Positions 3,610-31,464 of a stretch of 39,513 nt of DNA are shown one piece after another. The number at the start of each line of letters is the position of its first letter. Within the stretch, counting starts at the first letter, position 1. The stretch spans positions 1 through 39,513 of the forward strand of contig QNVF01000007.1 of the NCBI GenBank assembly GCA_004347965.1, in the 5' to 3' direction. This DNA comes from Candidatus Nezhaarchaeota archaeon WYZ-LMO8. GTDB lineage: Archaea; Thermoproteota; Methanomethylicia; Nezhaarchaeales; WYZ-LMO8. The position numbers and the translations under genes are program-made. The notes beneath the pieces were generated by a model. It was not told the DNA's origin. It did not search any database and saw only the letters and a list, made by a program, of their open reading frames with translations.

Positions 3610-4380
3610 GTGGTCTTCGAAAGCAGTGTACGTTATGTAGCGGAGATGATTATTGAATCTAAGAAAACTGTAGCATTAACTGGGGCTGGAATATCAACTG
3701 AAAGTGGTATACCTGATTTCAGGGGTCCTGAAGGGCTGTGGAAGAAAATAGATCCTAGACTTGTAACCATACAATCCTTTAGGATGTTTCCAGAAGTTTT
3801 TTGGTACTTCATAGCTGAAAGATTCGAGAGCTTGATGAAGGCTCAACCAAATAAAGCACACTACGCCTTAGCTGAGCTTGAGAAAATTGGCAAACTTAGC
3901 TCAATAATAACTCAAAACGTCGATGGTCTCCACTTTAAAGCTGGGTCTAAAAACGTAATAGAGCTGCACGGTAACATGAGGGAAGCCATATGTATGAACT
4001 GCAGTACTATCGTGCCCATGGATGAGGCCCTAAAGATGGCCAAGAGGAATTACTACCTTCCGATGTGTAAAAGCTGTGGAGGAATCTTAAAGGCAAACGT
4101 CATACTATTCAATGAGCCTTTACCAAAAGAAGCGATCGAGAAAGCTCTTTGTGAGAGCAGAACATGCGACTTGATGTTGGTTATAGGAACATCATTACAA
4201 GTGTACCCAGCTGCATATATGCCAGCTATTGCGAAGCAGAGAGGGGCAAAGCTTGCGATAATAAACATGGAGCCAACACCGTTAGATGATAGCGCTGATG
4301 TAGTGATTCATGCAAAAGCTGGTGAAGTCCTGCCAGTAATAGTTGGGATCATTAAAGAAAAGCTTATGAGAGCATCCTAG
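3610..4380 (+). CDS. cobB: NAD-dependent protein deacylase, Sir2/CobB family
   Basis: TGAGISTESGIPDFRG, ITQNVDGLH, ELHGN, CxxC...CxxC zinc ribbon, GTSLQVYPA. Confidence 0.96.
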   Translation: MVFESSVRYVAEMIIESKKTVALTGAGISTESGIPDFRGPEGLWKKIDPRLVTIQSFRMFPEVFWYFIAERFESLMKAQPNKAHYALAELEKIGKLSSIITQNVDGLHFKAGSKNVIELHGNMREAICMNCSTIVPMDEALKMAKRNYYLPMCKSCGGILKANVILFNEPLPKEAIEKALCESRTCDLMLVIGTSLQVYPAAYMPAIAKQRGAKLAIINMEPTPLDDSADVVIHAKAGEVLPVIVGIIKEKLMRAS

Positions 4381-13831: not shown

Positions 13832-14371
13832 CTAAGACGCGAGAATCTTGAATATGTAAGCTGCTACAAGCCAAAGTATTAGCCAAAAGACTCTAAACAG
13901 TATCTCAACATTCGTAGCTATGAGCCCCAGCAGGCCTAAGGCTATGCAGCCAATTGATAGCGAGTACAAGATGATTCTCTTGAAACCAGCCCTCCTAACG
14001 ATGTAAGTGAGATTTAAGATAGACCCCCTAGCACGAACCCTCACTTCGGTCTTCTCACGCTCCATGGAGCTATTGATGTTGGCAGGCTCGGTCTTAACTT
14101 TCAAGAACGTTATCGCTAAAATCCCCTTATCGGTTATGCAATACTTGGGCTTCTTATGGTTGGTCCTAGCTATAAAGCCATGGTCTATGAGCTCCTTTAA
14201 GTGTCTCTTAACAGTACTTTCGTCACGCTGAACTTCGTCTACAAGATCTTTTAGCGTGCAAGGACCCTTTTCGTGAATCCTCACTAAAAGCTTGAGTCTC
14301 GTTGGGTTACTTAGGACGCCAAAGTCGCATGCCATGTCCTCAACCTTAGTTCTTTCTCCTTCCTCACTCAA
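13832..14371 (-). CDS. ArsR-like winged-helix protein with two C-terminal TM helices
   Basis: LSNPTRLKLL...STVKRHLKELIDHGFI...YCITDKG, followed by two hydrophobic segments. Confidence 0.8.
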   Translation of the reverse strand: MSEEGERTKVEDMACDFGVLSNPTRLKLLVRIHEKGPCTLKDLVDEVQRDESTVKRHLKELIDHGFIARTNHKKPKYCITDKGILAITFLKVKTEPANINSSMEREKTEVRVRARGSILNLTYIVRRAGFKRIILYSLSIGCIALGLLGLIATNVEILFRVFWLILWLVAAYIFKILAS

Positions 14372-14489: not shown

Positions 14490-15218
14490 TCACGACGTGA
14501 CTTTAAAGAAGCTTGCTACACCGTGACACTTACATGCAGTTGTTAGGGCTATGCTAACGTCTCTTCCATCAACACTAGTCTCAACTTCGTGTATGAAGTT
14601 TCATAGAGTCTCAAAGTCGAATCCACCAGCAAAGTTTCCTGTCTTCCTACTCTCTAACACTAAAGCTAGGTCAGTGAAGCATAGGATCTCTTCAGCCATT
14701 TTTGTGATGGGCTTAAGCTTTAATCGACCAGTAACCGGACAAACGCCCGGTTGATTACATGGGACTATGCATCGAGACCATGAAGGCATACAGCTAAACG
14801 TGAATGTTGAGCTCTCAAAATCTAAGTTAAGGATCAATTCTTTTGGGAATAGCTTTAAAGCTTTCTTGATGCCATCAGGTGAAGGGATCACCTTAAGTCT
14901 TCGCATCTCAAGCTCACGTTTCAAGAAGTCAGCAGCAAAATGTCTTGGAATTGCTGGAACTACGATTTCTGGCTTTAAGCCTAAGCGAATCACTTTGCTT
15001 AAAGCATCTGACGCATTGCCTACGATAAGGATGGACTTGAACTTACCAAGATGCTCTCTATCTAACTTATCTAGTGGAATTACTAAGTCAACGTCTTTAC
15101 TAGCAGGGCATCTACCCTCAACGTCAGCTACTAGAACTAAGGAGTAGCTTGAAGCTTCATGCAAAGCCTTGAATCCAAAGAAACCTCCACCAGCTATGAA
15201 CAGCATACTCCCCCTCAT
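14490..15218 (-). pseudogene. Rossmann-fold, Cys-rich protein interrupted by an in-frame TGA at 14601-14603 (pseudogene, sequence error or readthrough)
   Basis: N-terminal IAGGGFFG dinucleotide-binding loop and CIVPCNQPGVCPVTG. After ...FDFETL* the same frame continues 36 codons (NFIHEVETSVDGRDVSIALTTACKCHGVASFFKVTS) to TGA at 14490-14492. Likely start is ATG 15206. Confidence 0.65.
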
Positions 15219-15314: not shown

Positions 15315-15932
15315 TTAAACATCCACGCCCCTCTCACGAATGCCCCTTACAACCTTACCTATTAAGATGAAGTCATTAATCAGCATATTCTTCAATTTAG
15401 GATTATAGAGCCCAGCAGCTGGGTGATAGGTGGGTACGACTAGGAGGCTAAGATCTTCGAAGTTTATTTTAAATACTTGACCTCTAACAGTTGATATTCT
15501 CCCCCTATACGTCTTTACTCCACCTTTGAGAAGTATGTAGTTTGTTGAGTATCTGCCGAGACACACAATTAACTTGGGCTTTATAACTGCTACTTGCTTA
15601 TCAAGGTAGGGAGTACAGGCATCAACTTCATCAGGCAGGGGGTCTCTATTACCTGGAGGTCTACACTTCAAGATATTGGTTATGAAGACCTCATCTCTCC
15701 TAAAACCAGCCATTTCTAGGAGTTTATCTAGAAATTTTCCAGCAGCTCCAACAAAGGGTCTTCCCTCCACATCCTCATTGTACCCCGGGGCCTCCCCTAC
15801 GAGCATGACGTCAGCATATACGTCTCCTTGACCTGGAACTGGCTTCATCCTTGAAGACCATAACCTACACTTTCTACAACTAGCTACCTCCCTCGCTACC
15901 TCTTCTAATATCCTGACCCTCTCGTTTTCCAT
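15315..15932 (-). CDS. udg: Family-4 uracil-DNA glycosylase (4Fe-4S)
   Basis: CRKC, VGEAPG..ED..GRPFVGAAG, TNILKCRPPGNRDP, TYHPAA. Confidence 0.96.
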   Translation of the reverse strand: MENERVRILEEVAREVASCRKCRLWSSRMKPVPGQGDVYADVMLVGEAPGYNEDVEGRPFVGAAGKFLDKLLEMAGFRRDEVFITNILKCRPPGNRDPLPDEVDACTPYLDKQVAVIKPKLIVCLGRYSTNYILLKGGVKTYRGRISTVRGQVFKINFEDLSLLVVPTYHPAAGLYNPKLKNMLINDFILIGKVVRGIRERGVDV

Positions 15933-15980
15933 AACAGCTATAGAAGATTACTGAGAAGAGGCATCTTTAAGCTTTGCAGT

Positions 15981-16063
15981 ATAGATCCATAGATCCACCA
16001 CGACGTTGCTAGTAGGGGTGTGCACCTCTGCAATGTCGTTTCAAGGACCTCTAAGTGCACCTC
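15981..16063. repeat. Short direct repeats in the divergent udg/operon intergenic region
   Basis: ATAGATCC twice in tandem (15981-15996); GTGCACCTC at 16020-16028 and 16055-16063. Confidence 0.45.
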
Positions 16064-16114
16064 GATGATCCGAGTGTTTATCAGAAGCCAAGTTGATGTC
16101 GAGACGATGAGCCT

Positions 16115-16750
16115 ATGATAAGGACCTTAGGTGGGACTTTGTTCTTAAGAAGAGGAATGATGAGTTTAAGAATAATATTATTTCTGCTATTATTACTATT
16201 GCTATCAACCATACTTCCTTGGCTCCTCATACCTATAGCCGCTTACATTGCTTACAAAGTTGGGAGATGGCTCTACAAGCTTGTTAAGAGCCTTAAATGG
16301 CCTAAGGCAGGAGGGAAGAGGAAGGAGCGCGTGAGCAGCGTTTCAACGGTTGGTGACATTCAAGTTTATGAAGTTGAAGGTATTGGACAAGCTCTCGTTG
16401 TGAAGAACGGTCTCGAAGCCCTAGGTTTAGGATGCTTAGAGGTAAGGTCTCTTGGTGGAGGTCGACTTGCTGAGCTTCTTAGTGCTATCGATGCGACGGT
16501 GAAGACAGGATTCGAGAGTAGCTTAATAGTTTCTAAGAGAACGTCGGGGGATGCTTGCTTCATGATCATGATCAAGGTCCGTAAGCCAATGATTAAGGAC
16601 TTCCTGGAGACGGCCAAGGAGGTCGTAGATGACGTGGTTAAGGGGCTTACAGCAGCCATGGGAGCAATTAAGGCTAGGTTGCCGAGGTCTGAGGTTCACG
16701 TATTGGAGTTCGATGACCTCTTAAAAGCTATTAGAGGTGTTGTAGCGTGA
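16115..16750 (+). CDS. Membrane-anchored hypothetical protein, first gene of the operon
   Basis: Long hydrophobic N-terminus (IILFLLLLLLLSTILPWLLIPIAAYIAY), a basic linker, then an alpha/beta domain. Start is probably ATG 16157/16160. GTGA overlap with the next gene. Confidence 0.7.
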   Translation: MIRTLGGTLFLRRGMMSLRIILFLLLLLLLSTILPWLLIPIAAYIAYKVGRWLYKLVKSLKWPKAGGKRKERVSSVSTVGDIQVYEVEGIGQALVVKNGLEALGLGCLEVRSLGGGRLAELLSAIDATVKTGFESSLIVSKRTSGDACFMIMIKVRKPMIKDFLETAKEVVDDVVKGLTAAMGAIKARLPRSEVHVLEFDDLLKAIRGVVA

Positions 16751-18030
16751 GCACCATAGTGGAGGTTGGGTGGATTGTTGATGGGGATGCGGATGCGCTG
16801 GTGGACACATTGAGGATCGATCTCTCTAACGTACATTTGCTAACGGTCAGCGGCGCCTGGAGCTTAAACGCTACTTGCCACTTATTGGGTCAAGTAGCGG
16901 GCTCAGTGAATTTAGTAGTAGTATCTCCTTACACAGCTGAGGGGCCTCAATGGCTTCGGCACTTGAGCCTTGGCTTGAACGCCTCGTTCAACCCCTTTAA
17001 ACCCGTTGGAGACAAGCTAGCATACTCACATTTCATTGCCGACATCTTCAAGGGAGCCTTTAGTCTGAACAATGCGCAAACCTCAGCTTTGAGGAGAGCG
17101 CTGATGAGAGCCTATCTAAGCAGTAAGGAGCCAACCGCTGAGGACGTTCTATCCGCATTAGAGATAGAATCAACCGAACTAACAAACCGAGATTCCATCG
17201 AGCTGATAGAGATCGTGGAGGCGATGTGTAGAGGTAGACTTGGAGCTGCGTGTACTAATCGATTAGAGCTCACGGATCTTCAAGCCATAATCTCGATGTC
17301 TGAGCTGCCACCAAGCTATGCCTCAATTCTATCCATGGCTATGTTAATGTATTTGGTGAAGAATGGCTTTAAAGGGGTCGTAGTACTATGCAACCTCGAT
17401 GTTCTCAGAGAATTCATTGGTTCCGCTTGGAGAAATTTCGTATACCTGGTTAATAAAATGAAGGTCGAACCTTTGACAATCATCGCCTGCACGAGCAGCG
17501 CATCGTTCACGCCACTAGAGTTGAGGACTAGAGCTCACATGATTATTGTCGGCTCACCTTTAACTCCTGAAGATGCCAAGTACGTTAGTGCTATGGTTGG
17601 CCGAAAACGTCTTAAGCTACTCAATAGCAAGGAGAGGTTCGCCTATAACCTCATTTCCTCAAGCGGAGTCATCGAGATACCGCTTGAAGAGACAGTGAAG
17701 ATGCATGTGGAAGAGGAGCTGAAAGCTCTTCTGGAAGCTCCTCGATCAATGCTTCACGCAAAGCTTGGCAATAAAGCTAAGATGGCATACGATATCTTAA
17801 GCTTCTTAAGGGATGGAGCGTCGACGAGAGACTCCGTGATATCTTATGCAATGCATAGGCTCGACGTATCATCGTTGGAGGCCTCAAGGCTTGTTAACAC
17901 ACTACTGATCCATGGACTTGCAAGTGAGGTTGTTGGGGCTGACGGTAAGTATTGGCTCAAGATTACAGTTCGAGGGCTCAACGCTTTAGAGGAGCTTGAA
18001 GCGTTAGAGGGGTGGTTGACACGAGAATAG
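16747..18030 (+). CDS. HerA/VirB4-like (DUF87-type) protein with degenerate Walker motifs and a C-terminal winged helix
   Basis: Helical-insert pattern SFNPFKP...IADIFKGAFSLNNAQTSALRRALMRAY...PTAEDVL. The Walker A position reads HLLTVSGAWSLN and the Walker B position VVVLCNLD. C-terminal AYDILSFLRDG..TRDSVI...EASRLVNTLLIHGL...YWLKITVRG resembles a wHTH. Confidence 0.6.
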   Translation: MSTIVEVGWIVDGDADALVDTLRIDLSNVHLLTVSGAWSLNATCHLLGQVAGSVNLVVVSPYTAEGPQWLRHLSLGLNASFNPFKPVGDKLAYSHFIADIFKGAFSLNNAQTSALRRALMRAYLSSKEPTAEDVLSALEIESTELTNRDSIELIEIVEAMCRGRLGAACTNRLELTDLQAIISMSELPPSYASILSMAMLMYLVKNGFKGVVVLCNLDVLREFIGSAWRNFVYLVNKMKVEPLTIIACTSSASFTPLELRTRAHMIIVGSPLTPEDAKYVSAMVGRKRLKLLNSKERFAYNLISSSGVIEIPLEETVKMHVEEELKALLEAPRSMLHAKLGNKAKMAYDILSFLRDGASTRDSVISYAMHRLDVSSLEASRLVNTLLIHGLASEVVGADGKYWLKITVRGLNALEELEALEGWLTRE

Positions 18031-18350
18031 AGAGAAGGGGTAGCTCATTAACTTGGGTTGTGGGAGTATCGTGTAAAGGGCTCTATACAGTCTCATTAAC
18101 ATTGTATAAATCAAGTAGTGGTTGGAGGGTGAAGAGAGAGTTAAGATTGAAGATTAAAAGAGCAGAGGATGAGAGGACCTTATTCATTGAGGATTACAGC
18201 CTACCAGAGTTCCAAGCCATTTTAGAGGCCTTCCAGTCCATGACGTCAGAGATCGACGTCGATGAAAGTGCTCGACGTCTTACCCTCGCTCTTAGAGCAT
18301 CAACGATCATCAACCTTCTCGTTCAAGAGCTCGGAGGTGTCTCTAGGTGA
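18012..18350 (+). CDS. Small hypothetical protein, possible PC4/PUR/Whirly-like ssDNA-binding fold
   Basis: Overlaps both neighbours. Four predicted beta strands with aromatic and basic residues, then the helix SLPEFQAILEAF. The fold call is inference. Confidence 0.55.
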   Translation: MVDTRIERRGSSLTWVVGVSCKGLYTVSLTLYKSSSGWRVKRELRLKIKRAEDERTLFIEDYSLPEFQAILEAFQSMTSEIDVDESARRLTLALRASTIINLLVQELGGVSR

Positions 18351-19309
18351 AGGGTGAAGTGAAGCTTGAGGACCTAGAGGGTATAGGACCCAAAACCGCA
18401 GAAAAACTTCGAAGCATTGGTATATGCTCAGCTAAGCACTTATCGCTTTTCAACGTTGATGAGCTCCTCAACTTAGTTGACGTCGATGAGAGGACTTTAA
18501 GGAGAGCTCTAGCTCACGCTAGAAGCATTTTCATGCCGTTAAGGGCTATTAAGGCCTTAGATAACTTGGCTCAAAAGTCTCTACCGCAATTAACAACTGG
18601 TGTCAAGAGCATAGATCTCCTCCTCAATGGTGGTCTAAGGCCTAGAGCAATCTACGAACTGTGTGGGCAACCAGGAGCTGGGAAGACTCAGCTTTGTCTA
18701 CAGCTATCAGTTACAATTCAGCTCTCAGCCAATAAGGGAGGTATTGGAGGTAAATGCTACTTCATGGATACTGAGGGAACCTTCAGCCTCAGCAGGGTCA
18801 AGGTCATAGCCGAGAGGTTTGGGCTCGACTCCGAGTACGCGTTAAGCAACATCTACGTCATAGACGTCATAAACACGGATCATCTACTTCAAGTGATAAC
18901 CTCAGACCTCGTTAGGGCTGTGGAGGATGGAGTGAAGTTAGTGATCGTGGACTCTTTGATGTCGAGGTTTAGAACTGAGTATGCTGGAAGAGAGTCTTTA
19001 GCTTTAAGGCAGAGTAGACTTGGTTATGCGCTTGACTGGCTTGTAAGGATAGCTAGGCTCTATGAGGTCATAGTGATCGTAACAACTCCAGTAATGGAAG
19101 TGCCAGTAGCATTTGTAAGCATAAATGAAAGACTAAGACCTGTTGGAGGCACGACATTAGCTCACGCTACGACTCACAGATTCTTCCTGACCACTAGAAG
19201 TGAAAGGGGCGTGCTTAGAGGTACCATGACCGTCCTAGATAGTCCATCTCTACCTCATGGAGCTATAGCAAGCTACTTGATAACCGACAAAGGGATTGAA
19301 GATGCGTAA
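18347..19309 (+). CDS. Divergent full-length RadA/Rad51 paralog
   Basis: N-terminal HhH (LEDLEGIGPKTAEKL), TTGVKSIDLLLNGG, Walker A GQPGAGKT, MDTEGTF, Walker B LVIVDS, FRTEY.GR..L..RQ, GG..LAH, DSPSLP, ITDKGIED. GGAGGTG ribosome-binding site. Confidence 0.9.
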   Translation: MKGEVKLEDLEGIGPKTAEKLRSIGICSAKHLSLFNVDELLNLVDVDERTLRRALAHARSIFMPLRAIKALDNLAQKSLPQLTTGVKSIDLLLNGGLRPRAIYELCGQPGAGKTQLCLQLSVTIQLSANKGGIGGKCYFMDTEGTFSLSRVKVIAERFGLDSEYALSNIYVIDVINTDHLLQVITSDLVRAVEDGVKLVIVDSLMSRFRTEYAGRESLALRQSRLGYALDWLVRIARLYEVIVIVTTPVMEVPVAFVSINERLRPVGGTTLAHATTHRFFLTTRSERGVLRGTMTVLDSPSLPHGAIASYLITDKGIEDA

Positions 19310-19631
19310 TAGAGAGCCTCGTATGAACGCTAAGATCTTAGACGATCGCATAATAGAGAAGCTCTTAGCGCTAATGGAGAACAAAGGATCTTCCTGGATC
19401 AAGAGGAGCATGAAGAGGGTGCATGATGTTTATGAATGCGACAGGAATACATGGATCGTTAGAGGGAGAAAAAGTCTCGGAGATGAAGAGACAATATACG
19501 TGGTTGAGTATGATGAAGAAAAAGGAAGCTTCAAGTGTACTTGTCACCAACCCTACAAACCCTACGCTAGGAGTAGGAGACGAGCATGCACTCACGTGGG
19601 TGCATGTCTCTTTCATCACATATTTTTCTAA
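19296..19631 (+). CDS. Stand-alone SWIM zinc-finger protein
   Basis: WIVRG...YVVEY...FKCTC...ACTHVGA matches CxC-x(14)-CxH preceded by beta strands. Overlaps the stop of the radA-like gene; start is 19296 or 19302. Confidence 0.85.
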   Translation: MKMRNREPRMNAKILDDRIIEKLLALMENKGSSWIKRSMKRVHDVYECDRNTWIVRGRKSLGDEETIYVVEYDEEKGSFKCTCHQPYKPYARSRRRACTHVGACLFHHIFF

Positions 19632-19655
19632 CTTCTTAGCATCGAGGTAAGAAAA

Positions 19656-20048
19656 GTGGGAAGATCTTATCTAGTAGTTGGCGACGGCAACAAACCCTTA
19701 CTGAAGTCGCTGGAGATCGCAAAGGGTAAGAGGATTGTGGTCTCTGACAAGCCATTAGAGGTTGATGGTTTCATCGAAATTTTAGATATATTTAAACAGT
19801 TCAATCAAATAGCTTCATTACCTCTAGAGCTTTCAGAGAACGATAGTCTTGTACTAGACCTGTATGCTCACGTCTCTAGACTATCTGCTTTAAGTAGGTA
19901 CGCTAGCGTGAAGTTGTACTTGAGGTTGTGCAGGATGTTGATTGCGTCAGCTAAAGCTAAGTGCTTTAATATCTACATTAATTGTAATAGGAGCTCGAAA
20001 CTTTATGTGAAGCTAAGGGCTACTGTTGACGAGGAGGTGCCTTGCTAA
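19656..20048 (+). CDS. Small hypothetical protein, probable minimal degenerate RecA/KaiC-fold
   Basis: SYLVVGDG (P-loop strand without GKT), IVVSD, SLVLD (Walker B-like), a long helix, NIYIN and LRATVDEEV follow RecA-core order. GAGGT ribosome-binding site. Confidence 0.55.
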   Translation: MGRSYLVVGDGNKPLLKSLEIAKGKRIVVSDKPLEVDGFIEILDIFKQFNQIASLPLELSENDSLVLDLYAHVSRLSALSRYASVKLYLRLCRMLIASAKAKCFNIYINCNRSSKLYVKLRATVDEEVPC

Positions 20049-20806
20049 TGGAGGTGAAGATCATACCGATAAGAGGCATACCAGTACCAGTCAAACCTGG
20101 AGATGACATAGCGAAACTCATATGCGAAGCAGCAGAAAGGCAGGGGACACCGCTGCTTGACGGCGACATCCTCGTCGTCTCCCAGAAGATAGTTTCGAAA
20201 GCTTGTGGTCACATATTCAGGCTAAGTGAGGTGAAGCCATCAGAAGAGGCAGTTAAGATATCAAGGATCTTGGAGAAGTCTCCAGAGCTTGTAGAAATAA
20301 TACTTAGAGAAACCAATAGAATAGTCAGGCTTAAGAACAAGCACATAATATGCGAAACCAAACATGGCTTTGTTTGCGCCAATGCTGGAGTGGATGTCTC
20401 CAACGTTGATGGAGGTTTAAGTGCGGTGACCTTACCCCTAGACCCTGACAAGGAGGCATCTAAGATAAGAGAGACAGTAAAGAAAATGAAGGGAGTGGAC
20501 ATTGCGGTCATAATTAGTGACACTCATGGCAGAGCTTTCAGGAGAGGTCAAGTGAATGTGGCGATAGGCGTAGCTGGGATGAAACCTTTGAGGGACAGGA
20601 GGGGGGAGAGAGACCTCTTCGGCTACATCCTCAAGTTCAAATTCATAGCCATAGTCGATGAGATAGCATCTGCAGCTGAGCTAGTAATGGGTCAAGCCGA
20701 TGAAGGTGTTCCAGCAGCAATCATAAGAGGACTAAGGTATGAAAGAGACGAGTCTGCATCAATTAAGGATCTTGTAATGTCTCCAGAGGAGGACTTGTTC
20801 CGTTAA
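20042..20806 (+). CDS. cofE: Coenzyme F420-0:L-glutamate ligase
   Basis: DGDILVVSQKIVSKA, CANAGVDVSN, LPLDPD, ISDTHGRAFRRG, DEIASAAELVMGQADEG.P. Likely start is ATG 20048 (TAATG overlap, after GAGGAGGTG). Confidence 0.95.
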   Translation: MLMEVKIIPIRGIPVPVKPGDDIAKLICEAAERQGTPLLDGDILVVSQKIVSKACGHIFRLSEVKPSEEAVKISRILEKSPELVEIILRETNRIVRLKNKHIICETKHGFVCANAGVDVSNVDGGLSAVTLPLDPDKEASKIRETVKKMKGVDIAVIISDTHGRAFRRGQVNVAIGVAGMKPLRDRRGERDLFGYILKFKFIAIVDEIASAAELVMGQADEGVPAAIIRGLRYERDESASIKDLVMSPEEDLFR

Positions 20807-20891
20807 TTTAAGCCTAAGCGAAGAGTTTAAAACTGACCAGCTACAGAAGTAGCAGACTACCACGAGGTCAGCGATTCGGAGGTAGCAAGAA

Positions 20892-21182
20892 ATGAGCAAA
20901 CCAAGACCTGGAGAGAATGTTGTCCTTGTTGGGAACAAACCAACTATGAATTATGTGCTTGCAACAGTAATACAATTCAACCAAGGAGCTGACAAGGTCG
21001 TCATAAAGGCTAGAGGAAGGGCTATATCGAAGGCTGTCGATGCAGCTGAGATAGTTAAGACGAGGTTCCTCATGAACCAGGTAGAGATAACTGATGTAAA
21101 GATAGGGACAGAGAAAGTCGGTGAAGGCGAGCAGTCCAGAAACGTCTCCACAATAGAGATAACGTTGGAGAGAAAGAAGTAG
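20892..21182 (+). CDS. albA: DNA/RNA-binding protein Alba
   Basis: [39 protein letters not shown] ribosome-binding site and TTTAAAA at 20826-20832. Confidence 0.97.
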
Positions 21183-28588: not shown

Positions 28589-29215
28589 TTGTGTATGTAT
28601 AGCTCTACAAGCAATGCAAGCAAAATAGTAGGTAAGCATTTCTATCGTCGAGATCCTGCAGTAGTAGCTGTTGAGCTCTTAGGTCAAAAACTTGTCAGAA
28701 TGTATGAAGGAACCAGGCTTTCTGGGATAATAATTGAAACTGAGGCTTACTATGGTAGGTGGGATCCTGCTTCAAGAGCTTATAGAAGTTTTAGGGGTGA
28801 TTTAGCTCAAACCCTTTATGGTGAAGTGGGCCATGCGCTCGTGTACGGAGTTCATGGTCAATGGCTCCTAAACGTGGTTGCACATGTGGATGGTGATGGT
28901 GGAGCAGTGCTCATAAGAGCGTTGGAGCCATGCGAGGGCGTGGAGGTGATGAAGAATATTACAGGTACCAGGAACGTTTACATGCTCACTAATGGTCCTG
29001 GAAAGTTGACTAGAGCTTTAATGATAGACAAGAGCTTTCATAAGAAGCCCATTTACACAATAGAGCATGGACTTTGGGTTGAAGAGTATGTAAAATTGGG
29101 TCCAAGTCAGATAGCTAAGAGTAGGAGGATAGGTGTTTCAAGGGATCTTCCTCAAGAACTGAGGTTCTACGTACATGGCAACCCTTTCGTCTCTAAGAAG
29201 ACCTCCATCAGATAG
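28589..29215 (+). CDS. mpg: 3-methyladenine DNA glycosylase (MPG/AAG family)
   Basis: IIETEAY, LNVV, AVLIRALEP, LTNGPGKL, RIGVS, RFY. Confidence 0.93.
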   Translation: MCMYSSTSNASKIVGKHFYRRDPAVVAVELLGQKLVRMYEGTRLSGIIIETEAYYGRWDPASRAYRSFRGDLAQTLYGEVGHALVYGVHGQWLLNVVAHVDGDGGAVLIRALEPCEGVEVMKNITGTRNVYMLTNGPGKLTRALMIDKSFHKKPIYTIEHGLWVEEYVKLGPSQIAKSRRIGVSRDLPQELRFYVHGNPFVSKKTSIR

Positions 29216-30279: not shown

Positions 30280-30618
30280 AACTTATGAGCTCACCTCATC
30301 AGGGCCTCTTCATTTCTCTACATTTCGGGTTAAAGCATTTGTAAGGTCATAGCGATAACGTAAGCTACTACTTCAACTATTAGCATTAGCCCTTAACGAA
30401 ATCTTTAGTTCTGTTGGTAATAGGTCTCTAACTTAATTATGACTGTGGTCACTGCTAAGACACCATACTTTATTGCTAAGATTATGTCTGGTGACATGTT
30501 TTACCTGCATAAATCATGTTCGTACGGTGAAGGCTGGAATGTTTGGGATAAGCTTAACAGCAAGACAAGAGTTAAAGGCTCACTTTACATAAGAAATCCA
30601 GTGGAGGGTAATGAGGTT

Positions 30619-31464
30619 TTGAAAAAAGTAATTAATGGGCTACTTTTTGGAACGGCTGGTATACCCCTAAGTACTCCAAAGCCTGCTACGAGCGTTAATG
30701 GCGTTTTAAGAGTTAGAGAATTGGGGCTCAATGCCATGGAGCTTGAGTTCGTTAGAGGGGTCAAGATGAGCGACGACTTAGCCTACAAGGTTAGAAGCGT
30801 TAGCGAAGCTGCTAAAGTAGTTCTAACAGCACACGCACCTTACTACATAAATCTGAACTCTCCCGAGAAGGCTAAGGTTGAAGCAAGTATCAATAGGATA
30901 CTTGAGACAGCAAGAGTTGCTTACAAGGCTGGTGGATGGTCCATAGTATTTCATCCAGCTTACTACGGCAAGGACTCAGCGGAGCTGGTCTACGAGAGGG
31001 TTAAGGAGGCTCTTAAGGTTATAGTCAGAACCTTGAGCGATGAAGGAGTAAGCGTGTGGATTAGACCTGAAACCTCTGGTGGACTAGCAGAGTTCGGTAG
31101 CCTAGAAGAGGTTGTGAGACTTAGCCAAGAAGTTGAAGGAGTGCTACCATGCATAGACTTCGCACACATGCATGCTAGGAGCAGGGGAGAGTATAACAGC
31201 TACGAGGAGTTTATGAAAGTGTTCAACTATGTAGAGAAAGAGCTGGGCAAAGATATCTTGAAGAACATGCACATGCACTTCTCAGGAATAGAGTATGGAG
31301 AGAAGGGGGAGATAAGGCATTTGAACATCCAAGAATCTGATTTCAAGTACGTTGATCTTGCCAAGGCCTTGAAGGACTATTCGATTGAGGGAATAATAAT
31401 AAGCGAGTCGCCAAACATAGAAGACGATGCATTACTTCTAAAGAAGGCTTACGATCTATCCTGA
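30619..31464 (+). CDS. nfo: Endonuclease IV-like TIM-barrel AP endonuclease (archaeal type)
   Basis: FGTAGIP, ELEFVRG, HAPYYINLNS, FHP, PETSG, DFAHMHAR, HMHFSGI, HL, ESP. Start moved from 30439 to TTG 30619, which follows GAGGT. Confidence 0.88.
   Translation: MKKVINGLLFGTAGIPLSTPKPATSVNGVLRVRELGLNAMELEFVRGVKMSDDLAYKVRSVSEAAKVVLTAHAPYYINLNSPEKAKVEASINRILETARVAYKAGGWSIVFHPAYYGKDSAELVYERVKEALKVIVRTLSDEGVSVWIRPETSGGLAEFGSLEEVVRLSQEVEGVLPCIDFAHMHARSRGEYNSYEEFMKVFNYVEKELGKDILKNMHMHFSGIEYGEKGEIRHLNIQESDFKYVDLAKALKDYSIEGIIISESPNIEDDALLLKKAYDLS

Follow-up and report, generated by a model that had tools for sequence, protein, structure and literature searches.

The stretch of DNA analysed here (the window) comprises 39,513 nucleotides of contig QNVF01000007.1 from Candidatus Nezhaarchaeota archaeon WYZ-LMO8, a member of Nezhaarchaeales (class Methanomethylicia, phylum Thermoproteota), and it contains a compact operon of six co-oriented genes, p1 to p6, arranged around a second RadA-type gene that is here named RadA2 (p4; Table 1). 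An earlier note on this DNA, made from the sequence alone, had described the six genes as an overlapping series divergent from a uracil-DNA glycosylase gene (udg), and all of these open reading frames (ORFs) and junctions were confirmed. Five of its six protein assignments were also upheld, that of p6 only in general terms. The genes are joined by GTGA overlaps at 16747 and 18347, by a 19-nucleotide (nt) overlap at 18012 and by a 14-nt overlap at 19296, and a gap of 24 nt separates p5 from p6 before 19656. GAGG-type motifs were found 5 to 14 nt 5' of p2, p3, p4, p6 and the downstream gene cofE. The spacer between udg and the operon measures 182 nt.

Conservation of the gene order in relatives, a check set by the same note, was found. 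With p2 as a single query, a match was obtained in 23 of 41 relatives, and the six-gene order was kept in all 15 of the relatives' loci fetched first. A scan with the RadA2 alignment, limited to one genome per species, returned 80 loci, of which 17 had p2 and/or the SWIM zinc-finger gene (p5) beside the RadA2 match; 6 were Vulcanisaeta RadA2 genes without partners, and the remainder were canonical RadA. The 17 loci span Nezhaarchaeales, Culexarchaeum, Culexmicrobium, other Methanomethylicia and four contigs (L035-L038) of metagenome-assembled genomes (MAGs) from Thermoprotei/Thermoproteales. When 401 Thermoproteota genomes were searched with the p2 profile, 64 had a match at E<=1e-5. Of 21 matching genomes inspected in addition to the first 15, 12 carried p1/p2-p3-RadA2 in order (11 of 11 loci, together with L161 of genome G329), and the other 9 held, within an operon of unrelated content, a solo DUF87-like gene with a Walker A; since such genes count among the p2-like matches, 64 is an upper bound. 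The arrangement is far beyond chance, because the same order recurs across the fetched loci, and the true core is p1-p2-p3-RadA2, whose order was kept in every RadA2-linked locus examined, over many families of Thermoproteota.

The SWIM gene and p6 follow RadA2 in each of the 15 loci fetched first, as they do in 6 further full loci of the RadA2 scan. Since other lineages replace these two genes, the six-gene system is better described as a four-gene core with variable partners. At L166:7265-7819 (genome G346, family f5, Methanomethylicia), a 184-amino-acid (aa) KaiC/RadB-like protein with a Walker A motif was found in the place of SWIM and p6, and in that locus RadA2 may have this small ATPase of the RecA type as its partner instead. 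The module is single-copy in its own genome, with one p2-profile match. No cultured organism among those examined carries the full cluster; cultured Vulcanisaeta has RadA2 alone. The DNA sequencing runs containing the stretch are hot-spring metagenomes, and all runs matching window positions 15900-20900 were DNA and none RNA.

Table 1. Genes of the operon and further features of the window
Feature	Position	Strand	Description
p1	16115-16750	+	211 aa, N-terminal membrane anchor and alpha/beta domain
p2	16747-18030	+	427 aa, HerA/VirB4-type domain (~15-320) and C-terminal MarR/RosR-like winged helix (~333-427)
p3	18012-18350	+	112 aa, small conserved protein
p4 (RadA2)	18347-19309	+	320 aa, Pfam Rad51 and HHH_5
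p5	19296-19631	+	111 aa, SWIM zinc-finger protein, CxC...CxH
p6	19656-20048	+	130 aa, P-loop-NTPase-like (Rossmann-type) fold, no Walker motifs
cofE, F420-0:L-glutamate ligase	20042/20048-20806	+	Pfam F420_ligase 8.5e-76; TIGR01916 288 vs cut-off 180.65
udg, family-4 uracil-DNA glycosylase	15315-15932	-	Pfam UDG 2.7e-35; NCBIfam Arch_udg 256.6 vs cut-off 250
205-aa ORF between ArsR-type regulator and udg	14601-15218	-	ORF list, Pfam scan
ArsR/MarR-type winged-helix protein, C-terminal hydrophobic segments	13832-14371	-	Pfam MarR 2.6e-11, HTH_20 2.6e-10
Sir2 deacetylase	3610-4380		
Alba	20892-21182		
Methylpurine-DNA glycosylase	28589-29215		
AP_endonuc_2-type TIM-barrel protein	30439-31464		

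The proteins of the module

RadA2 was matched by Pfam Rad51 at 5.9e-60 and, over residues 6-59, by HHH_5 at 1.2e-7, which places a helix-hairpin-helix (HhH) domain at its N terminus. Its score against NF003301 was 259.4, a pass by 0.4 bits over the cut-off of 259, with an alignment covering residues 3-319. It fell below the cut-off of TIGR02236 (245.8 vs 361.15) and below those of the RadB models (TIGR02237, 105.3 vs 172.4). The canonical RadA of the same genome is encoded on contig C17; it scored 308.7 bits compared with 203.6 for RadA2, and the two proteins are 35% identical. In a maximum-likelihood tree of 89 sequences, 23 cluster-linked and 5 Vulcanisaeta rows formed a RadA2 clade with a support of 90 in the Shimodaira-Hasegawa-like approximate likelihood ratio test (SH-aLRT), and an inner clade of 25 rows reached 97. 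The clade was placed inside Thermoproteota RadA, with sub-clades that track taxonomy; its exact sister group is unsure because the tree came from a quick search and has long stem branches. RadA2 is therefore separate from housekeeping RadA by both equivalog cut-off and tree position, and its designation as a RadA paralog in the earlier note is upheld. Wherever this was checked, RadA2 had not replaced canonical RadA: both occur in the genome of the window, in Vulcanisaeta sp. AZ3 (L039 and L099), in UBA163 (L040 and L110) and in Culexmicrobium (L046 and L091). In public records, RadA2 appears as "DNA repair and recombination protein RadA", and the entry for p2 is "hypothetical protein". Because RadA2 is annotated simply as RadA, genome surveys conflate the two genes.

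Several further RecA-family genes were encountered. The canonical radA of G000:C17 (L001:1483-2451, minus strand) lies near genes judged by eye to be EF-1alpha-like and ribosomal protein S10-like. About 700 bp from it on the same strand, beyond an ORF for a 167-aa membrane protein, is a short third paralog of ~194 aa (L001:3122-3706) that is weakly Rad51-like. Other Thermoprotei MAGs carry canonical RadA with a tandem, divergent, full-length paralog (L053:1891-2805, L083:2765-3688, L092:7298-8239). These tandem paralogs scored 192 to 199 bits with the RadA2 hidden Markov model, one has a Walker A Lys-to-Arg change, and in the tree they are sister to the RadA2 clade. The RadA sequences L061 and L080, from MAGs labelled Methylomirabilota and Dormiibacterota, nest among Bathyarchaeia RadA and are probably binning errors.

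The catalytic residues of RadA2 are retained. Walker A (G107, G112, K113), E143 and Walker B D202 were invariant in 16/16 orthologs, as were many residues across the L1 and L2 regions. The family profile gave 260 to 313 bits on solved RadA, Rad51 and Dmc1 chains and 115 to 145 on XRCC3, RAD51B and RAD51C; on these scores, RadA2 is of the recombinase type (RAD-alpha-like) and no relative of the eukaryotic paralogs. What has been lost is the interdomain linker motif F..A, which was found in 0/23 cluster RadA2 and 0/5 Vulcanisaeta RadA2 compared with 52/57 canonical RadA. The Phe position of this FxxA motif is occupied by V, I, A, L or Y. This Phe is the residue by which a protomer docks into its neighbour, and without it RadA2 should not build normal homofilaments.

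These features bear on whether RadA2 might be an alternative recombinase that works by itself, on a special substrate or under a special condition such as replication restart or high-temperature or stationary-phase repair, with its partners serving as regulators or localisation factors. The HhH domain, Walker A and B, E143 and the RadA-like L1 and L2 would all suit such a protein, as would profile scores that resemble those of RadA, Rad51 and Dmc1 rather than those of eukaryotic paralogs, the occurrence of RadA2 in Vulcanisaeta without the other genes, and the database label "RadA". However, the loss of F..A in 28/28 RadA2 argues against normal self-polymerisation, RadA2 is tied to a dead HerA paralog (p2) in all lineages except Vulcanisaeta, and it never stands in for canonical RadA where both were sought. 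A stand-alone recombinase is accordingly considered improbable, at roughly one chance in five.

The second protein of the operon, p2, could not be recognized by sequence. Pfam, NCBIfam and PDB sequence searches of its ATPase part gave nothing; as a single sequence p2 had 0 matches in the PDB, and its profile obtained weak winged-helix matches alone (E 0.1). An AlphaFold2 (AF2) model was built from a 16-row alignment, with a mean predicted local distance difference test (pLDDT) value of 76.8. In Foldseek the model matched VirB4 of Thermoanaerobacter (E 1.8e-7), DndH-C, TrwB and HerA. VIA-align gave scores of 21.0 with VirB4 (288 residues, root mean square deviation 3.6), 20.6 with DndH-C, 17.3 and 15.9 with HerA, ~16 with TrwB and Cagbeta, and ~12 with RosR/MarR-type winged helices, the last over residues ~333-427. 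The FtsK-HerA ATPase-domain fold is present in this predicted model. Residues from ~15 onward aligned to HerA chains from residue 124-160 on, and because of these start positions p2 appears to be without the HerA part that precedes the ATPase domain.

Searched against 1.84 billion representatives, the p2 profile found 167 proteins at E<=1e-3 and 22 at <=1e-30. The top 26 of 72 relatives scanned had no Pfam domain; from E 4.5e-16 down, most carried PF01935 (DUF87, the HerA central domain), often accompanied by HerA_C, TrwB_AAD_bind or P-loop_TraG. The Walker A signature GxxxxGK[ST] was present in 0/38 distinct cluster-linked p2 and in 8/8 solo DUF87-like relatives away from RadA2; at its place p2 has the consensus GxFGPLxxR. 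A Walker-B-like pair, E[DEN] or D[DE] after a hydrophobic strand, could be read from the alignment in 12/16 p2 sequences, whereas this place is occupied by C-N/D-L/V-D or R-D-V-D in the family of the window. Judged by sequence and predicted fold, p2 is a catalytically dead protein of the FtsK-HerA superfamily and the DUF87 clade with an added winged helix, as the earlier note had proposed in calling it a Walker-degenerate HerA/VirB4-like protein. An adjacent nurA-herA pair is encoded elsewhere in the genome (C23), so that p2 is an extra, inactivated HerA-clade paralog.

The same note had also assigned the first protein to the HerA/VirB4 group, and here only the membrane association held. A single N-terminal hydrophobic stretch of 30 to 40 aa was found in 15/16 members of the p1 family, preceding a cytoplasmic alpha/beta domain of ~140 aa, and p1 had no Pfam or NCBIfam match. 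The Atlas model of residues 71-211 reached a template modelling (TM) score of ~0.5 to the N-terminal part of a cluster of 609-aa archaeal DUF87/HerA_C ATPases, and likewise ~0.5 to YbjN/CesT/DUF2299-like proteins. The possibility that p1 arose when a longer DUF87 ATPase was divided and its N-terminal domain became a separate protein was rejected, as hhalign against P0084 and P0037 was negative (probability <1%); because of this negative profile comparison, the likeness to DUF87 ATPases is a lead only. In Culexmicrobium-type loci (L019:7316-8307, L044:3308-4308, L046:3317-4308) p1 is divided into a membrane part of ~193 aa and a part of ~137 aa, through either a real split or a frameshift. The p3 family (112 to 151 aa) lies between p2 and RadA2 in every core locus, and K49 and F58 are its only invariant residues. 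No relatives outside the cluster were detected in Pfam, NCBIfam, Atlas or by PDB profile; the best PDB profile match, to a helical stretch of UPF0342 YheA (E 0.0022), was unconvincing.

The composition of p1, p2 and p3 also bears on the DNA-uptake function suggested in the earlier note. Under that explanation, p1-p2-p3 would form a machine resembling Ced/Ted or a type IV secretion system (T4SS) coupling apparatus and would feed imported DNA to RadA2, SWIM and p6. VirB4 and coupling proteins are indeed the best fold matches of p2, and Ted loci are genomically linked to recombination genes, sitting with HerA-like and rad50 genes (PMC9905601, in part). However, a translocation motor needs ATP hydrolysis, and no cluster-linked p2 retains Walker A. 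Neither a pilin nor a polytopic channel of the CedA/TedA type is encoded between 16115 and 20048, the only part of the genome covered for Ced/Ted genes, and no membrane protein gene other than p1 lies there; p1 has one hydrophobic stretch, and p3, p5 and p6 have none. A dprA gene, which the note had thought worth seeking elsewhere in the genome, was not found in the 1.35-Mb assembly, which is 93% complete. RadA and SWIM are each mentioned zero times in the available part of the Ced/Ted paper (PMC9905601). DNA import coupled to recombination is therefore regarded as unlikely, at little better than one chance in ten.

For p5, the assignment as a SWIM protein was sustained by the CxC...CxH residues C81, C83, C98 and H100, which were invariant in 16/16 members. 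The extended SWIM signature is CxHxxA (PMC6316741, in part), and the residue three after the His was Ala in 9/16 and Ser in 7/16. Pfam SWIM matched 2/16 members, at E 0.16. The p5 gene is single-copy in its own genome, with one SWIM-profile match. Related p5-type SWIM genes were seen in Vulcanisaeta, at 1 to 8 copies per genome (L117-L124; G041-G043), encoding proteins of ~190 aa with a C-terminal extension. They mostly follow a gene for a CopG/ribbon-helix-helix (RHH) protein and are flanked by another conserved small protein, an arrangement that looks mobile or toxin-antitoxin-like. A C-terminal motif, NPW-L/V-x-I-L/I, is common to AbrB-like proteins encoded downstream of RadA2 (L163:7317-7796, L165:2708-3169) and to Vulcanisaeta RHH proteins; the RHH genes with this end (L117:1152-1520, L118:1796-2128, L124:1784-2125) adjoin SWIM.

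The last protein, p6, had been described as a degenerate RecA fold, and this stood in part. Its structure model (pLDDT 75.4) is a five-stranded alpha/beta sandwich of the P-loop-NTPase type, and no conserved Walker motif was found in the alignment. The best Foldseek match was KaiC CI (E 8e-3), and RAD51 had a query-normalised TM score (TMq) of 0.65. RecA chains were not the top matches overall, and p6 showed no profile similarity to RadA. The p6 profile found nothing better than E 0.67 among PDB sequences, and p6 was not similar to the KaiC/RadB-like protein of L166 (probability 2.9%). From its predicted model, p6 is possibly a "mini-RecA". Its partnership with the SWIM protein is likely: L164:7705-8502 encodes a SWIM-p6 fusion of 265 aa, and hhalign placed the p6 profile on fusion residues 121-259 (E 2.4e-4, 139 columns). 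A complex prediction of RadA2, p6 and SWIM, with SWIM as the scored partner, gave a score of 0.01 (mark 0.32), which is evidence neither way.

Gene neighbourhood and proposed function

The gene 3' of p6 is cofE, which the earlier note had missed. Because it overlaps or abuts p6, depending on its start, the transcription unit in the window's family may comprise seven genes, with cofE cotranscribed with p1-p6. As cofE was found 3' of p6 only in this family (L016-L018), it lies outside the conserved module. The same three loci are also the only ones with udg beside the cluster. On the other side, the 205-aa ORF had zero Pfam matches; it is Cys-rich near its C terminus, and its position is kept in its own genus. 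Beyond it lies the ArsR/MarR-type gene. An HTH_5/HTH_20/MarR protein adjoins the cluster in 10 of 14 other flank-scanned loci, and C-terminal hydrophobic stretches were present in 11/11 such regulators, including that of the window. This ArsR-type, membrane-anchored neighbour probably qualifies as a candidate regulator of the operon.

Repair genes adjoin the cluster in several lineages: udg in the window's family, rad50 in L038, TatD in L024, Nre in L163 and L165, and an AP_endonuc_2-type triosephosphate isomerase (TIM) barrel in L164. The Rad50 gene L038:933-3353, with SMC_N and zinc hook, is directly 5' of p1 on the same strand. A C2H2 zinc-finger and coiled-coil protein is encoded after p6 in three Thermoprotei loci (L036:7680-8048, L037:3680-4177, L038:7745-8242). 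In the window itself, several genes for chromatin proteins and base-excision repair are no more than 12 kb away from the operon; they encode Sir2 deacetylase, Alba, methylpurine-DNA glycosylase and an AP_endonuc_2-type TIM-barrel protein.

The flanks in the window are housekeeping genes, and no integrase or transposase was found in its 39.5 kb. Together with the single copy and the taxon-grouped RadA2 tree, this speaks against a HerA-scaffolded module in the manner of Sir2-HerA or DUF4297-HerA, whether for defence against viruses or plasmids or domesticated from a mobile element. No PADLOC family was matched by p1, p2, p3, p5 or p6 at E<=0.1, and RadA2 had only generic P-loop-level matches. 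The cluster encodes no effector such as a nuclease or Sir2, and its HerA-like subunit is ATPase-dead, unlike defence HerAs. Such an origin is therefore judged very unlikely, the least probable of the explanations weighed here.

The reading that we favour is that the operon is a chromosomal module of Thermoproteota, inherited vertically, that assists recombination and is organised around RadA2. In the full detail that follows, it is given about an even chance of being correct; the general version, a RadA2-centred helper of recombination or repair, deserves more confidence than this, and each specific contact deserves less. In this proposal, RadA2 would be a paralog-type mediator that binds single-stranded DNA and nucleates, caps or stabilises filaments of canonical RadA, and would not be the main recombinase. 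Rad51 paralogs in eukaryotes sit on, cap or nucleate filaments (PMC6316741, in part). The SWIM protein and p6 would form a heterodimer acting on RadA2, as SWS1-SWSAP1 or Shu2-Shu1-Psy3-Csm2 act on Rad51; a heterodimer is suggested because the two genes lie side by side in most lineages and form a single fusion gene in another. As p2 can be no motor, a dead ring-ATPase paralog with a winged helix is most simply regarded as a scaffold. In that role p2 would bind DNA or protein without ATP hydrolysis, possibly as a ring, and p1 would hold it at the membrane. Since p3 always lies between p2 and RadA2, it is a candidate adaptor between the two. Recombination intermediates would thus be handled at a membrane-proximal site, and the membrane-anchored ArsR-type neighbour would control the operon.

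Several observations weigh against this reading. RadA2 still looks like a competent recombinase and may act alone, and Vulcanisaeta keeps it alone, without p2. The core can do without SWIM and p6: among 9 further loci with a visible downstream region, the SWIM gene was present in 4, and the other 5 had an AbrB-like gene (L163, L165), the KaiC/RadB-like gene (L166) or nothing recognisable (L167, L161). SWIM is also not specific to RadA2, since Vulcanisaeta carries this family in multi-copy modules unrelated to it. No sequence link of p5 to Shu2/SWS1 was detected, its profile having 0 matches at E<=10 among all PDB chain sequences. The best structural match of p6 was the Wzc kinase domain, not RecA; hhalign gave a probability of 0.2% for p6 and RadA2, and no Rad51 paralog showed a sequence link to p6. 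Repair genes adjoin the cluster only sporadically, each in one family or locus, and are no more than suggestive. The reading does not account for the role of the p1 membrane anchor, and the functions proposed for all members derive from sequence, predicted models and analogy.

The module bears on two subjects of which little is known, the assembly and control of recombinase filaments in archaea and the question of where the Rad51-paralog and Shu mediators of eukaryotes came from. It offers a compact, conserved and biochemically tractable set of thermostable proteins. If the predicted complexes form, it would provide a simple model for paralog-type mediation, a documented dead-HerA scaffold and the first connection of homologous recombination to the membrane in archaea. 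A bolder version of the favoured reading takes the operon as a prokaryotic counterpart of the Shu and Rad51-paralog mediators on a membrane-anchored, dead HerA/VirB4 ring, in which SWIM and its stripped P-loop partner would act on a dedicated RadA paralog that does not polymerise, possibly with shared ancestry or with handover of imported or broken DNA to RadA. This version is thought rather unlikely, on a par with a stand-alone recombinase; if true, a membrane-sited recombination mediator would be a kind of machine described in no domain.

Comparison with known systems

The closest parallel is the Shu complex, in which a small SWIM protein is paired with RecA-superfamily-like proteins without catalytic motifs, next to or acting on a Rad51-type protein. 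In the operon, the SWIM gene lies beside RadA2 and is paired with p6, which lacks such motifs and is possibly RecA-like. The SWIM-p6 fusion of L164 mirrors the obligate SWS1-SWSAP1 partnership (human SWS1-SWSAP1-SPIDR; yeast Shu2-Shu1-Psy3-Csm2). Shu2 orthologs are described as conserved "from archaea to humans" (PMC5727457, in part). The systems differ in that RadA2 is full-length and catalytically intact, in contrast to Csm2, Psy3 and SWSAP1, and in that the membrane anchor and the dead HerA-type protein have no Shu counterpart. Among PDB chain sequences and with Pfam SWIM, no sequence similarity of p5 to Shu2/SWS1 was detected, and a RecA fold was not demonstrable for p6.

Ced/Ted shares with the operon a membrane-associated VirB4/HerA-like component. 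There, a CedA/TedA channel with 6 to 7 transmembrane (TM) segments and a CedA1/TedC pilin are encoded with the CedB/TedB ATPase (PMC9905601, in part), whereas the operon has neither a 6-7-TM channel nor a pilin gene and its ATPase is inactive. Ced/Ted loci, as described in the available part of that paper, lack RadA and SWIM. From HerA-NurA, VirB4, VirD4/TrwB and DndH, the operon is set apart by the absence of Walker A in p2, by the absence of NurA from the cluster and by the added winged helix.

Among archaeal recombinases, the relevant paralogs are RadB of Euryarchaeota and aRadC (RadC1-2) of Sulfolobales. To our knowledge, RadB and aRadC are the only archaeal recombinase helpers that have been studied. 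Like RadA2, they accompany canonical RadA as additional members of the RecA family, with a presumed part in modulating recombination. Unlike RadA2, they are without the N-terminal HhH domain; RadA2 has this domain, a clade of its own and four or five fixed partner genes. The available part of a 2025 survey of RadA/Rad51/Dmc1 evolution covers Asgard RadA duplicates and makes no mention of the RadA2 clade (PMC12722695).

The earlier note knew of no described operon of this composition, and in the literature searched, which left out Godin et al. 2015, no description of it was found. That study reportedly analysed Shu2/SWS1 evolution. The parts of the module come from known superfamilies, and it is their combination, in which a membrane anchor and a pseudo-HerA are joined to a RadA with the loss expected of a non-polymerising protein and to SWIM with a stripped P-loop protein, that is undescribed and distinguishes the operon from each of the systems above.

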